The notes below the pieces were generated by a model that made no database searches, was not told the DNA's origin, and saw nothing but the letters and a program-made list of their open reading frames with translations. A stretch of DNA of 64,000 nucleotides from positions 1,347,615 to 1,411,614 of the forward strand of contig OY763426.1 of the NCBI GenBank assembly GCA_963667495.1, given 5' to 3'. Positions 3,319-11,188 of this stretch are shown piece after piece; the stretch's first letter is position 1; each line of letters begins with the position of its first letter. This DNA comes from Candidatus Binatia bacterium. Lineage in GTDB: Bacteria > Desulfobacterota > Binatia > Bin18. The translations under genes were made by a program, and so were the position numbers.

Positions 3319-4113
3319 ATGGCTGCGCAAACAGACGAACCAATAGAGCTTCTCACCTATCCGAATAGCCCGTATGGCGCAAAAGTTTATTGGGCACTGC
3401 AATTCAAAGGCGCCAAGTTCGCTCTGAGCTATGTCAATGGATTCACTACGAAAGAAATCGCTTTTTCAAAGCAGAAAGTGGTCCCAGTTCTCAAAATTGG
3501 TGATCGGTGGCTACAGGACTCTCGCGAGAACTGTTTGCGCTTGGAAGAGGTTTTCCCGGAGCGTTCTTTCGCCGGAAAGACTGAGCAGGAACGTGAAGAC
3601 GTCATTGCTGCTGACCAATGGGTAGATCGGAATATATTCGGGCTACACATGCGCGCGTGTATCGATAAACGAGAAAGCGTTCTTAGTAAACGGAACGCGC
3701 GAAGAATGGCAGATGTGGTGCTGCCGAGTTTTTCAGGTCTGCCACCGCTCTGGTTTAGGAATGTCGTACTCAAGCCAACTTGGTGGTTCGTGTTGCGGAA
3801 TGTTGGTTTTGTAAAACGGATGGCGAGTCAGATTGATACACACAAAGACCTTCAATCCGTTCACGCTGAAGTGGTAAGGGCGTTTGAAAAACGTATTGGA
3901 AAAACGGGCTTTCTTGCTGGGACTGAAGAGCCCTCGTTCGCCGATATCGCCGCATTCGCACAAATTGCGTTCTGCACGACGCATGGTTTCGAGGGCACGT
4001 TGAACGCTGACGCATCGCCCGTGGTCAGCGCCTGGTATGACCGGATGCGGACCTATTTCCCAGACAACCCAACCCCTGCCCTCTTTCCGTACTGGCCACC
4101 CGCCGGGTTCTAG
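3319..4113 (+). CDS. Glutathione S-transferase-like protein (thioredoxin-fold N-terminus plus GST C-terminus)
   Basis: LLTYPNSPYGAKVYWALQFKGAKF...VPVL resembles a GST/glutaredoxin-2-like N-terminus. The start at 3319 has a GAGGA RBS. Local GC is lower than the surroundings. Confidence 0.6.
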   Translation: MAAQTDEPIELLTYPNSPYGAKVYWALQFKGAKFALSYVNGFTTKEIAFSKQKVVPVLKIGDRWLQDSRENCLRLEEVFPERSFAGKTEQEREDVIAADQWVDRNIFGLHMRACIDKRESVLSKRNARRMADVVLPSFSGLPPLWFRNVVLKPTWWFVLRNVGFVKRMASQIDTHKDLQSVHAEVVRAFEKRIGKTGFLAGTEEPSFADIAAFAQIAFCTTHGFEGTLNADASPVVSAWYDRMRTYFPDNPTPALFPYWPPAGF

Positions 4114-5351: not shown

Positions 5352-5383
5352 GAGCAACCCAATAGAAAAGAAGGAGAGACCCA

Positions 5384-6397
5384 ATGGACGTATTACGCGC
5401 CCCGGATGAACGATTCGCGAACCTGCCCGGCTACAGTTTCGAACCTCACTACACTGAGGTTTCCGACGGCGAAGGCGGCGAACTGCGACTTCACCACGTA
5501 GAGCAAGGACCTTCCTCGGGTGAGGTCGTACTCTGTTTGCACGGGCAGCCCACCTGGTCCTACTTGTACCGCAAGATGATCCCGGTCTTTGCCCAAGCGG
5601 GTTACCGCACCATTGCGCCAGACTTCGTCGGGTTCGGCCGCTCGGACAAGCCGACGCGAACCGAGGATTACACCTATGCAAGGCACGTCGAGTGGATGCG
5701 GCAATGGCTACAGACAAACCAACTGAATGATATCACGCTGGTGTGTCAAGATTGGGGAGGGCTGATCGGTCTACGCTTGGTGGCGACGCTCCCAGAGCAT
5801 TTCTCCCGGGTCGTCATCGCAAACACGGGCCTCCCGGAGGGCTCTGGTTTTCTAACCTCGTTCGATATTCGTCTAGCACCGAAGATGCATCGGGTGTACT
5901 CCTCGCTGCCCGTGCCCGCGAGCCTAAGCGAGGTCTTTGCGAAAATTCAAAACCCCGGAGAGGTGCCACCGTTTTTTTTCTGGCGAAAATTCGTGGCGCA
6001 AAGTCCTAATTTTCGTCCGCAGGATTTCGTTGAGATGGCTTCGAGCAGCGAACTCTCCGCCGATGTGCTCGCAGCATACGAAGCGCCTTTCCCCGACGAA
6101 CGTTTTCTAGCAGGAGCGAGGCGGTTCCCGAGTTTGGTGCCGATCACGCCCGACGAGCCGGAGGCCACGAGCAATCGAATGGCATGGAATGTATTGCAGA
6201 CGTTTGACAAGCCGTTCCTAACCGCGTTTAGCGACGGTGATATTGGATCCGCCGGCATGGAAAGAGAATTCCAGGAACGCGTTCCCGGTGCTAAGAAGCA
6301 GGCGCACATCACGATCAGAGACGCTGGCCACTTTCTTCAGGAGGACGCGGGGGAGCGGTTCGCTGAAGAGATCGTAAACTTCATGCGTACCAACTGA
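5384..6397 (+). CDS. Haloalkane dehalogenase (alpha/beta hydrolase fold)
   Basis: ERFANLPGYSFEPHY.EV...LRLHHVEQGP..GEVVLCLHGQPTWSYLYRKMIP...APDFVGFGRSDKP...DYTYARHVEWM...DITLVCQDWGG is the canonical haloalkane dehalogenase N-terminus with its nucleophile-elbow context. A GAAGGAGAG RBS lies upstream. Confidence 0.85.
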   Translation: MDVLRAPDERFANLPGYSFEPHYTEVSDGEGGELRLHHVEQGPSSGEVVLCLHGQPTWSYLYRKMIPVFAQAGYRTIAPDFVGFGRSDKPTRTEDYTYARHVEWMRQWLQTNQLNDITLVCQDWGGLIGLRLVATLPEHFSRVVIANTGLPEGSGFLTSFDIRLAPKMHRVYSSLPVPASLSEVFAKIQNPGEVPPFFFWRKFVAQSPNFRPQDFVEMASSSELSADVLAAYEAPFPDERFLAGARRFPSLVPITPDEPEATSNRMAWNVLQTFDKPFLTAFSDGDIGSAGMEREFQERVPGAKKQAHITIRDAGHFLQEDAGERFAEEIVNFMRTN

Positions 6398-6404
6398 CCG
6401 GAAG

Positions 6405-6428
6405 TCGCCGCGACGCGGCGATTTGCAG
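6405..6428 (+). terminator. Hairpin tcgccgcg-acg-cggcga followed by TTTG; weak intrinsic terminator after the dehalogenase gene
   Basis: A perfect 8-bp GC stem sits immediately 3' of the stop at 6397. The U-tract is short. Confidence 0.4.
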
Positions 6429-6452
6429 TATATGGACCAGTGGGCGGATTTG

Positions 6453-7271
6453 GTCACGGTCAGGAGGCGGATTACCCCGCCCCCTGCCGCTGCAAAACCG
6501 TACGTGAGACTTTGGTCTCATACGGCTTGTCAAACCGCTAGTCCCTGACACGGATACCAGACGCGGCATTCCGCAGTGTCTGGCTCGGGATATGAGCTTT
6601 GGGAGCTGGCCGACCCCTCTAGGAGGGCTGACCACGCCTCAGTATGCATCGCTGCATCTGCCATAGCGATAAAGCTCCTACTCGTTCCTATCCTTTCTAG
6701 CGACCTGTGCCCGCGTCAGCATATCTCGCGGCTTTCCCGCGAGCCTTGGCTTCTCGGACAATCCTGCCTCCGGTGAACATACGGCTGACTACCTACCCGC
6801 CCTCCTATTGGAGGGTGGGAGATCATCGAAGGTTATCCCGTTCCTGTTACCTGCTGGTGTGTGACCGTAGGATCGTGCTCTACGCCGGGTCTACTGCGAG
6901 CGGAGTCCCCAGCTCTGCGGTGCTGAGGACCTGAGACCAGTCCCTTTTGGGCCAGCCGCTAAGCCAGAGTCGGCTAGGTCGCAATCACGACGCCTCCATA
7001 CACGTTCGCTTGCGCTATCCCTAGTCACCTGGGTCGAGGGTCACCTGATCTGACTTCGGTGAGTGCCCCTTTGAACCCTTGCACTCCGACGGTTGAGGGT
7101 CAGTCGCGCGCCGTAGGGTTCTCCCGTCTCCCGTCCGCCACGGGGGGAGGACTTGCGAGAAGAGACAGTCTCTTCCGCTCACCTCCGCAGATAACAAGTT
7201 GTCAAAGAGCATGAAGCTCTCCGCCGCTCAGCCTCCCATCTCCCGATGGTTTCGAGCGAACGGGTCGCACC
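6453..7271 (-). mobile_element. ORF-less group II intron (ribozyme only, about 820 nt)
   Basis: On the minus strand a textbook domain V, AAGCCGUAUGAGAC-CAAA-GUCUCACGUACGGUUU, maps to plus coordinates 6496-6528. It has the AGC triad, a 2-nt AC bulge and a tetraloop. A GC-rich domain VI hairpin follows with a bulged A 7 nt before an ...GAC 3' end near 6453. The 5' end, GUGCGAC, is at 7271. No ORF longer than 63 aa lies inside, so no RT/maturase is encoded. Confidence 0.7.
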
Positions 7272-7647
7272 GCAAAAAGTTACGGTTTCAAGTGGACAGA
7301 GCGCCCATCTGAAGTCCCGATTTTGTGTCCGATAAGGCCGTTTCTGTCAAACTCCTCAGAAATATGAGCTCTCGGTGTGGTGCAACACTTTGCTAGTCAT
7401 CTGTTTACGGAGAAGAAAAAGATGACAGGGATGTGGACTTAAAGTGCGGAAAAGTGGGCTTTGGTGCCGAGAAGCCAAAACTAAAAATGAAACACAGACA
7501 GCCGGACTGTTTCACGGCCTTTTTTTCAGGCGAACACCCCGTCTTGTGGGCGATCGCCCTTGCGGCGGCGGGCGACATCCCCTGCTCAATATATCCGCGG
7601 CTTCGGCTATTGACTGATCGCGGCTCTATCGACGATCCTTGATTCCT

Positions 7648-8241
7648 TTAACAGCCCGGCTGTTCCGCTTCTGCCCGCATGTCCTGATGCGCGAATGAAA
7701 GCGGACACGGCTTGCCCACCCCGTCGAGCCCGACGGCGTAGACCAGCCGTCCGTAGCCAATAAAAATCGCCATACGCCAGCCCAGGGCCATGATCTCGGG
7801 CTCGCTGTAATGGGTCCGCAACTCGTCAAACAAATCCTGGGAGACCTGTTTATGATCGCGGGCCAGGGTGTCCGCAAAGCGCAGGGCAGCTTTCTCACGC
7901 GGTGTGAACAAATCGCTGTCCTGAAAATGGGGCAGGGCGTGGATCATTTCCTCCGTCAGACCTTGTTGCCTCGCCGAGGCATACACGGCCGTCATTCAAA
8001 GCTGGCATTCGTTGATCTGGGCCACCTTGTGCCGAATCAGCTCGGTCAGCTTCACGCTGATCCCATCGACGTCGACCATAATATGGGAGTAGTAAAAATC
8101 GACGAAGTGTTTATAGAGGTCCGGGGTATGGGCAAAGACCTGTATCCATTCCGACCCGCCGAGCGCCTCGTCGCTCTGCTGCATGGTTTTTTGCAGCTCG
8201 GGGTCAACCTTCTCAAACGGCACCTTGCTGACACGTAGCAT
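7648..8241 (-). CDS. AhpD-like / carboxymuconolactone decarboxylase family protein with an in-frame TGA (putative selenocysteine, C-x-x-U motif)
   Basis: The track ORFs 7996..8241 and 7648..7995 are contiguous and in the same frame, separated only by a TGA (plus coordinates 7996-7998). Read through, the sequence is ELIRHKVAQINECQL-U-MTAVYA..., which aligns with the CMD-family motif RVSQxNGCxYC in which the TGA replaces the second Cys. Downstream, TPREKAALRFADTLARDHKQVSQDLFDELRTHYSEPEIMALGWRMAIFIGYGRL is typical of AhpD-like proteins. Confidence 0.7.
7967..7981 (-). other. Candidate SECIS hairpin (UGCCUC-GGC-GAGGCA), 14 nt after the minus-strand UGA
   Basis: It is a perfect 6-bp inverted repeat on the minus-strand mRNA. 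The loop is short, so this call is less convincing than the redoxin SECIS. Confidence 0.35.
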
Positions 8242-10523: not shown

Positions 10524-10760
10524 ATGCAGTCTGCCTTACGTATCAAGACCACGGTGCTCCCAGGAGGAAAAATTGAAGTTGTTGATGAAACCCTCCAAGC
10601 AGGAGAGGCTGTAGACGTTATCGTTCTCCCCCAGCGAGCATCAACCGCTCGTCAATCGGCTGTCGATATTTTAGCCGGAGCACCAGGGCAACGTCTCTTT
10701 CACACGGCAGAAGAGGTCGATGCCTCCATCAAAAAAGAGCGCGACGCATGGGATCGTTGA
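10524..10760 (+). CDS. vapB: Type II antitoxin (VapB-like), partner of the downstream PIN toxin
   Basis: 78 aa. It overlaps the PIN-domain gene by 13 nt. Local GC is lower than the surroundings. Confidence 0.6.
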   Translation: MQSALRIKTTVLPGGKIEVVDETLQAGEAVDVIVLPQRASTARQSAVDILAGAPGQRLFHTAEEVDASIKKERDAWDR

Positions 10761-11188
10761 CTCTTCCCGCTATTGGTCCCATTTATCTTGATGCCAATGG
10801 ATTTATCTATAGCGTCGAGCGGATTGAACCGTACCGCACTGTACTCGAACCATTGTGGCAGCAAGCCCAAGCAGGACAGTTCCAAATCGTCAGCAGTGAA
10901 TTAACACTGCTCGAAACTCTTGTGAAGCCTTTCCAAAAGGAAGACGCATTACTCGAAAATATCTTTCGCTCCCTCTTTGTATCGCGTGAAGTGCAACTCA
11001 TTCCCGCTACGACAGCCATCTGGGAACAGGCTGCACGTCTTCGAGCCTCGCTCAACTTAAAGACTCCAGATGCACTACATGCCGCCTCTGCTCTTGCTGT
11101 TGGCAGCACTCTGCTTCTCACCAATGATCCGGACTTTCGTCAGATTCCAGACGTGCCGGTCACTGTTCTCGGCGACGTGGTCAGCTGA
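10748..11188 (+). CDS. vapC: PIN-domain ribonuclease toxin (VapC family)
   Basis: 146 aa. The fold pattern is PIN-like with conserved acidic residues (YLDANGFIY...TND). Confidence 0.7.
   Translation: MGSLTLPAIGPIYLDANGFIYSVERIEPYRTVLEPLWQQAQAGQFQIVSSELTLLETLVKPFQKEDALLENIFRSLFVSREVQLIPATTAIWEQAARLRASLNLKTPDALHAASALAVGSTLLLTNDPDFRQIPDVPVTVLGDVVS

Follow-up and report, generated by a model that had tools for sequence, protein, structure and literature searches.

Group II introns without an open reading frame (ORF) are rare in bacteria but have been described, nearly always in genomes that also carry related intron-encoded proteins (PMC4424553). Thermosynechococcus elongatus harbors 17 such introns of the chloroplast-like (CL)/IIB1 type, which have been shown experimentally to be mobilized in trans, lie mostly between genes, and display good pairings between exon-binding sequences (EBS) and intron-binding sequences (IBS) (PMC2882425). 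The single independent ORF-less bacterial intron cited is C.te.I1 of Clostridium tetani, whose genome is devoid of intron-encoded protein and for which robust self-splicing was shown (PMC4424553). Here, we analyzed a 64,000-nt stretch of contig OY763426.1 from a Candidatus Binatia bacterium (the window). Positions 6453-7270 of its minus strand (818 nt) very probably correspond to a class IIB group II intron that lacks an ORF but is structurally complete; its nearest sampled relatives are protein-encoding cyanobacterial introns of the chloroplast-like lineage, and its reverse transcriptase (RT) would be supplied in trans. The CL label is suggested by these sampled relatives only. The window intron is no new class, and its unusual points are limited to its host lineage, a ribozyme of cyanobacterial affinity, and a loop/receptor variant.

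Like TeI3 (Mohr, Ghanem & Lambowitz 2010, PMC2882425), the window intron is a bacterial ORF-less IIB intron about 0.8 kb long whose ribozyme domains are complete, and in both cases the relatives encode RT-maturase-HNH proteins in cyanobacteria. However, TeI3 retains recognizable N- and C-terminal ORF remnants around one common deletion and numbers 17 copies in one cyanobacterial genome, where 8 ORF-containing copies also occur, whereas no remnant is detectable in the window intron, of which one copy was seen in a non-cyanobacterial host. C.te.I1 is likewise a bacterial ORF-less intron with no intron-encoded protein at hand, but differs in that its self-splicing and the genome-wide absence of such a protein were shown. 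HYERs (Liu et al. 2024, via bioRxiv 10.1101/2024.08.31.610620) are also ORF-less group II-derived RNAs with an intact core and a guide. As far as that secondary account describes them, they belong to class IIC, recognize about 7 bp, and have no EBS2, in contrast to the window intron, which is of class IIB with EBS1, EBS2, a 34-nt domain V, and a domain VI carrying a branch point.

A sequence-only reading of the window had proposed a group II intron of about 820 nt lacking an ORF, and the proposal now holds well beyond domain V through covariance models, helices, exon pairing, and an exact insertion junction. RF00029 (Intron_gpII, domains V and VI), the sole Rfam family found in the window, matches 6453-6530 on the minus strand over its full length with 52 bits (gathering score, 40; E 2.6e-7). 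Together with the fold, this match bears out the minus-strand domain V, with its AGC triad, AC bulge, and tetraloop (here CAAA, i.e., non-GNRA), as well as the bulged A located 7 nt before a GAC end in domain VI, which falls at 6460. Read from 7270, the minus strand begins with GUGCGACCCGUU..., and read to its end at 6453, it finishes with ...CCUGACCGUGAC; GUGCG at 7270-7266 and ...GAC at 6455-6453 agree with the GUGYG and AY consensus sequences, respectively.

A degenerate domain V pattern returned 51 loci in a metagenome scan and one in a genome-collection scan (L052, from an uncultured Cyanobacterium metagenome-assembled genome). In blastn and single-sequence nhmmer comparisons of the intron with the 51 metagenome loci, similarity was confined to domain V. 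Four introns (L027, L034, L052, and L018), each holding a 560- to 590-aa RT/maturase/HNH ORF inside domain IV, share with the window the 5′ end GUGCGAC(Y)CGUU and, in the same order, the motifs UUGACAACU, AUAACCC, GGGUUAAA, GGGAACG..UAACC, AGGAUUGU..AGAAGC, GAUAUGCUGACG, and GUAYCCAUGACAAGG. In Pleurocapsa, Gloeocapsa, Cyanobacterium, and Geminocystis, homologues of the L027 protein bear the annotation group II intron reverse transcriptase/maturase. The four cyanobacterial introns agree with the window intron in how the helices of domains I to III are all ordered and shaped, in possessing the loop-loop pairing and an EBS1 loop of 8 nt, in domain V (31 to 32 of 34 nt identical), and in a GNRA-capped domain VI with a branch A 7 nt from the ...AC end. 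They differ in carrying their own RT/maturase/HNH ORF, in their GAAA domain V loop and canonical 11-nt-type receptor, and in an unbroken GNRA hairpin, and beyond the conserved junctions their primary sequence is too diverged from that of the window for blastn.

Some of these relatives have peculiarities of their own. L027 is a nested intron, with a 5′ exon encoding ...GEKRPLGIPT..., an RT motif of another group II intron protein, and a second, weaker domain II-III profile match upstream (L027 1-1000 / 240-486); this nesting agrees with the twintron habit described for T. elongatus. L052 has an A-rich insertion of ~250 nt (intron positions ~30-277) in the first domain I hairpin, the window counterpart of which is a 34-nt hairpin. 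L034 contains at 3371-3447 a near-threshold match to the cyanobacterial small RNA PsrR1 (39.4 bits versus a gathering score of 42), and a cyanobacterial origin of this metagenome contig is therefore supported.

Three covariance models (R1 to R3) were built from the four relatives, with the window left out. R3, representing the 5′ half of domain I with a structure taken from RNAalifold, matched 7205-7032 with 37.5 bits (E 3.1e-7; next best, E 1.1). R2, representing the domain I arm with the tetraloop receptor, EBS2, the loop-loop partner, and EBS1 and given a structure written from the relatives, matched 7028-6861 with 30.6 bits (E 2.2e-5; next best, E 0.8) with filters off and gave no match with default filters. 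R1, spanning J1/2, domain II, J2/3, and domain III, matched 6844-6705 with 66.9 bits (E 1.4e-13) and nowhere else. The three matches are full length, on the correct strand, in the correct order, and almost abutting, and are followed by domain IV and then by the Rfam domain V/VI match. An nhmmer profile of the relatives only matched 6849-6490 (E 2e-14), while the same profile minus domains IV to VI gave a weak match (E 0.0045); outside these domains, the signal is carried by structure.

The group-II-D1D4 models of Rfam gave no match on the intron, even at E <= 10, and support from Rfam is thus present for domains V and VI but formally absent for domains I to IV. This absence is uninformative because the four full-length protein-encoding relatives likewise have no group-II-D1D4 match, whereas L009, L015, and L028, introns of another class and of a different group from the window intron, match D1D4-2 with ~100 bits. 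Rfam is without a domain I-IV model for the intron class of the window and its four relatives.

A helix table, in which 21 helices were placed by conserved flanks, contains 110 window pairs that are all standard (110/110), a count biased towards structure by hand assembly; R1 to R3 back the same helices independently. At 37 positions, both window bases differ from those of all four relatives and pairing is kept. For instance, a long-range domain I stem reads GUUAUCUGC/GCAGGUAAC in the window versus AAUAUUCAU/AUGGAUAUU, the base of domain III reads UGUCCG/CGGGCA versus UGUGUA/UACACA, and the domain VI pair beside the branch A is C-G versus G-U. The loop-loop pairing of AAGUCAG (7056-7050) with CUGGCUU (6967-6961) is kept in all five introns with differing sequences. 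The minimum-free-energy fold of the whole intron did not reproduce the canonical long-range architecture and was used for domains V and VI alone. The parts of the intron and of its target, read along the intron strand, are as follows.

6453..7270, minus strand: whole intron, 5′ GUGCGAC ... GUGAC 3′, tiled collinearly by R3, R2, R1, and RF00029.
7271..7284, minus strand: 5′ exon target, with IBS2 CGUAA at 7284-7280, a 3-nt gap, and IBS1 UUUGCG at 7276-7271.
7266..7270, minus strand: 5′ splice-site consensus GUGCG, aligned with the 5′ ends of the four relatives.
6837..7265, minus strand: domain I, from the R3 and R2 matches and the helix table.
7264-7259 / 6842-6837, minus strand: domain I closing stem CCCGUU/AACGGG.
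7195-7187 / 6854-6846, minus strand: domain I long-range stem given above, from the helix table.
7155..7178, minus strand: 24-nt extra hairpin, inserted where a GNRA loop (GUAA/GAAA) caps the corresponding hairpin of all four relatives.
7050..7056, minus strand: loop AAGUCAG, an alpha-type loop-loop partner.
7017..7028, minus strand: 5′ strand of the tetraloop-receptor stem, GUGACUAGGGAU, homologous in the R2 alignment to UCAACUAUGUCU of the relatives, which is of the 11-nt-receptor type.
6980..6984, minus strand: EBS2 candidate UUGCG, pairing with exon CGUAA.
6961..6967, minus strand: loop CUGGCUU, the second loop-loop partner, from the helix table.
6914..6919, minus strand: EBS1 CGCAGA, within the 8-nt terminal loop ACCGCAGA.
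6861..6873, minus strand: 3′ strand of the tetraloop-receptor stem, AUCCUACGGUCAC, homologous in the R2 alignment to AGACUAAGGUUGA of the relatives.
6767..6832, minus strand: domain II, from the fold and inside the R1 match (6705-6844), with several non-standard pairs relative to the model.
6761..6766, minus strand: J2/3 CAGGAU, of which AGGAU is invariant among the relatives.
6708..6760, minus strand: domain III, from the fold and the R1 alignment, with 0 mismatched pairs and 7 fully compensatory positions.
6532..6705, minus strand: domain IV, ~170 nt, with no ORF and a base stem CGCUAG/CUAGCG.
6495..6528, minus strand: domain V, 34 nt, AAGCCGUAUGAGACCAAAGUCUCACGUACGGUUU, with the AGC triad, a 2-nt AC bulge, and a 4-nt CAAA loop (fold z -5.4).
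6456..6490, minus strand: domain VI, with a GUAA tetraloop and a single bulged branch-point A.
6437..6452, minus strand: 3′ exon part of the target, CAAAUCCGCCCACUGG, continuous with the 5′ exon part in sister genome L059.

In the R3 alignment, the extra hairpin of domain I appears as 28 nt in the window versus 4 in the model, and a single-domain fold agrees. The conserved 3′ hairpin of domain IV, GUAUCCGUG, aligns with GUAYCCAUGA of the relatives.

The earlier proposal had been staked on a foldable domain I and on complementarity between EBS and IBS, and both are found. R3 and R2 together cover 7205-6861, with compensatory changes in long-range stems, and the exon is paired through 6 bp at EBS1, in a homologous loop, and 5 bp at EBS2. 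A 4-bp stem with an 8-nt loop stands at the same place in all five introns. In the window, EBS1 in this loop pairs with the last six bases of the 5′ exon, UUUGCG (6 bp, including 1 G-U), and the homologous loops of the relatives, read by eye against their own 5′ exons, pair at 6/6 positions in L034 and 5/6 in L027 and L052. The corresponding IBS1 in the sister genome L059, UCUGCG, has a perfect Watson-Crick complement nowhere in the intron but at the proposed EBS1. EBS2 forms 5 bp, including 1 G-U, with the exon bases CGUAA (positions -14 to -10) and occupies the alignment column of the GUAUU:AAUAC pairing of L027; taken alone, this pairing is weak and not beyond chance. The first 3′ exon base, C6452, would be IBS3. 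Two other candidates for EBS1, both reading CGCAAG and able to pair with the exon, were rejected: the one at intron positions 257-262 is a small GNRA hairpin conserved in all relatives whatever the exon, and the one at 114-119 lies inside the 24-nt insertion specific to the window.

Sister loci were reached through homologues of the neighboring dehalogenase gene and of a carboxymuconolactone decarboxylase (CMD)-family gene, for a total of 32 loci and 282 kb. Only one of them, L059 (a 4.92-Mb contig), has the target: at 6389-6418, between the CMD gene and a gene for a 247-aa protein, it carries the uninterrupted sequence CCAGCGGGCGGATTTGCGCAGAAAGTTACG. This sequence is 28/30 identical (E 4e-9) to the reverse complement of the window exons joined at 7271 and 6452, which form the 30-mer CCAGYGGGCGGATTTGCGCARAAAGTTACG; the ligated junction reads CUUUUUGCG followed by CAAAUCC or, in longer form, ...AACUUUUUGCG followed by CAAAUCCGCC.... 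Since the L059 30-mer spans the joined exons, the intron is a discrete insertion of 818 nt with fixed boundaries, and G7271 is exonic. Accordingly, the 5′ end GUGCGAC of the sequence-only reading stands, but its start at 7271 does not, as the intron starts at 7270 and G7271 is the last exon base. The L059 30-mer is inverted relative to the flanking genes, and it is therefore a homologous target rather than a strict syntenic empty site. L059 has neither the dehalogenase nor the 377-nt spacer described below, and no window flank sequence other than this 30-mer was found in the 32 sister loci.

What the sequence-only reading saw as a 1-kb gene-free stretch that could pass for junk is not so, as it consists of a strain-specific spacer of 377 nt, the 818-nt intron, and 55 nt. 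The same reading placed the intron just downstream of the dehalogenase terminator, and the position is correct. A GC-rich hairpin at 6405-6421 (TCGCCG-CGACG-CGGCGA on the plus strand) starts 8 nt after the dehalogenase stop codon and is followed by only three T's; it was not called by a consensus terminator scan, and on the intron's strand it lies downstream of the intron, in the 3′ exon. The scan found no terminator-like site upstream on the intron's strand. A terminator-targeting insertion of the class IIC kind was rejected on account of the 34-nt domain V, the presence of EBS2, and the lack of an upstream terminator; no IIC mechanism is implied because the intron is of the IIB type and its target is read through EBS1/EBS2. 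The IIB assignment is supported by a domain I with EBS2, the 34-nt domain V, and homology to ribozymes carrying CL-type RT/maturase/HNH proteins. Separately, the hairpin at 6405-6421 may still terminate one of the two convergent transcripts or both.

In agreement with the sequence-only reading, the intron contains no RT/maturase ORF, its largest ORF being 63 aa (7021..7212). Searches by tblastn with the intron-encoded proteins of two relatives gave no match to the intron or to any other part of the 64-kb window and recognized no ORF remnant in domain IV. Among the 120 matches listed for the L027 protein, all homologues are cyanobacterial or on unrelated contigs.

Taken together, insertion by reverse splicing, with an RT provided in trans by a related intron, would be the most likely history of this locus. 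A lariat RNA, in a ribonucleoprotein with an RT/maturase, would have reverse-spliced between ...CGUAA-CUU-U(C/U)UGCG and C... and then been copied into DNA by the normal group II route. As the intron encodes no protein, the RT must come in trans, presumably from a related intron as in T. elongatus. Should transcription read through from the upstream CMD-family gene into the intron, splicing from a non-coding transcript would be possible, and the cost to the host could be low because the intron can splice out of such a transcript. No host function is evident for the intron, which occupies an intergenic hotspot that varies between strains.

Several observations weigh against this history, in addition to the bias of the helix table and the inversion of the L059 target mentioned above. 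The CAAA loop of domain V (6511-6514) replaces the GAAA of the relatives, and activity could drop as a result; among the 52 fetched introns matched through domain V, the first loop base is G in 50, U in 2 (L005 and L042), and never C. The presumed receptor reads CCUACG/UAGGG instead of ACUAAG/UAUGU in the relatives (R2 alignment), and the hairpin that they cap with a GNRA loop is broken by the 24-nt insertion (7178-7155); either change could likewise lower activity. No helper RT is present in the 64-kb window, and 103 kb of sister loci showed none either, although they were searched for intron RNA only. No second copy of the intron was found in the window, in viral contigs, or in plasmids, and the genome and metagenome scans yielded nothing closer than domain V-level similarity.

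The best surviving alternative, which we consider unlikely, is that a real ORF-less insertion has been stranded as a relic, immobile and perhaps unable to splice after losing its helper protein, with the CAAA loop, the receptor, and the extra hairpin as signs of early decay. The lack of an RT in the window and of a second copy in the places searched would fit such a relic, as would the non-GNRA domain V loop, the altered receptor, the interruption of a conserved GNRA hairpin, and the non-coding nature of the exons, which implies no selection for splicing. However, neutral decay should break pairs, whereas all 110 form and the three models match over their full length. The AGC triad, the AC bulge, J2/3, and the branch A are intact, and so are the GNRA loop capping domain VI and both termini with their splice sites; the intact helices argue against appreciable decay. 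The receptor changes, from UAAG to UACG (7019-7023) and from UAU to UAG (6865-6870), amount to A to C and U to G at two positions that, in the 11-nt receptor structure, presumably face each other. Such a change resembles compensation more than random damage, and the domain V loop and the receptor may be a co-varied pair.

Beyond trans-mobilization and decay, it is improbable that the intron is an independent, self-active ORF-less IIB ribozyme in a 4.95-Mb genome with no group II RT, with CAAA (changed from GAAA) and CCUACG/UAGGG (changed from a CCUAAG/UAUGG type) forming a natural non-GNRA tetraloop-receptor pair that holds the catalytic core together. If true, only C.te.I1 would precede it as a stand-alone ORF-less intron of bacteria, and it would be a compact RNA with a guide of ~11 nt. 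We regard as similarly improbable a protein-independent ribozyme with a role of its own, be it self-splicing like C.te.I1 or RNA-guided DNA cutting or integration like HYERs or P.li.LSU.I2. The catalytic core is intact, EBS1 and EBS2 together offer a guide of ~11 nt, and no intron-encoded protein is in reach of tblastn in the window; precedents exist in C.te.I1 (PMC4424553), in HYERs, and in the protein-free reverse splicing of a IIB1 intron into DNA (bioRxiv 10.1101/2024.08.31.610620). On the other hand, HYERs belong to class IIC whereas the window intron is of class IIB with EBS2, the intron was seen only once, at a variable intergenic site, with no conservation observed across sister genomes, and most bacterial group II introns require their own protein at physiological salt. 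Finally, there is next to no chance that a domain V/VI fragment or a fortuitous resemblance lies beside unrelated DNA: Rfam is silent beyond domains V and VI, and blastn and single-sequence nhmmer see domain V alone in the 51 metagenome introns, but Rfam misses domains I to IV of the full-length relatives too, and this explanation is contradicted by R1 to R3 and the compensatory changes as well as by the pairing of EBS with the exon and by the exact L059 junction.

About 0.8 kb of "empty" intergenic DNA can now be named as a mobile ribozyme. RT-ORF-based group II intron pipelines overlook such elements, as cautioned in a review (PMC4424553). The L059 target and the mapped EBS1/EBS2 provide a ready donor/recipient pair for a mobility assay. 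The window intron settles no open question. Because the host lineage is uncultured and non-cyanobacterial, yet the nearest sampled relatives of the ribozyme are cyanobacterial, the comparison hints at horizontal transfer of the intron. A cyanobacterial host was rejected, as the HIP1 palindrome occurs in the window at close to its expected frequency (2 versus 1.65).

Between the CMD gene and the conserved genes that come next (5377-7635) lies a rearrangement hotspot that varies among the strains of this lineage (L055-L084). Different sister genomes hold a gene for an NYN-domain, DSBA, or ankyrin-repeat protein, a small ORF, or nothing at all downstream of the CMD gene. A TetR/GST/126-aa/247-aa cluster occupies the hotspot in the window and L059 only, and the dehalogenase and the intron are found there in the window only; in L054/L075, which belong to the same 3.6-Mb contig, the dehalogenase cluster is 1.2 Mb from the CMD gene. 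Further along the window, a small antitoxin-like ORF (78 aa) overlaps a PIN-domain VapC toxin gene (146 aa, NCBI name) at 10524-11188 on the plus strand, a pair present in some sister genomes and absent from others. As for the CMD gene itself, ORFs of 81 aa and 115 aa at 7648-8241 on the minus strand form one CMD-family (carboxymuconolactone decarboxylase/AhpD-like) frame with an in-frame TGA at 7996-7998. The motif around it is C-Q-L-[TGA], with CxxU replacing CxxC; the TGA falls inside the Pfam CMD domain, and a stable hairpin begins 8 nt downstream of this codon. The TGA and its context are conserved in 9 aligned sister loci, and the 81-aa and 115-aa pair is present in all of the fetched CMD-gene loci (30/30). 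The CMD gene thus probably encodes a selenoprotein that is split by gene callers.

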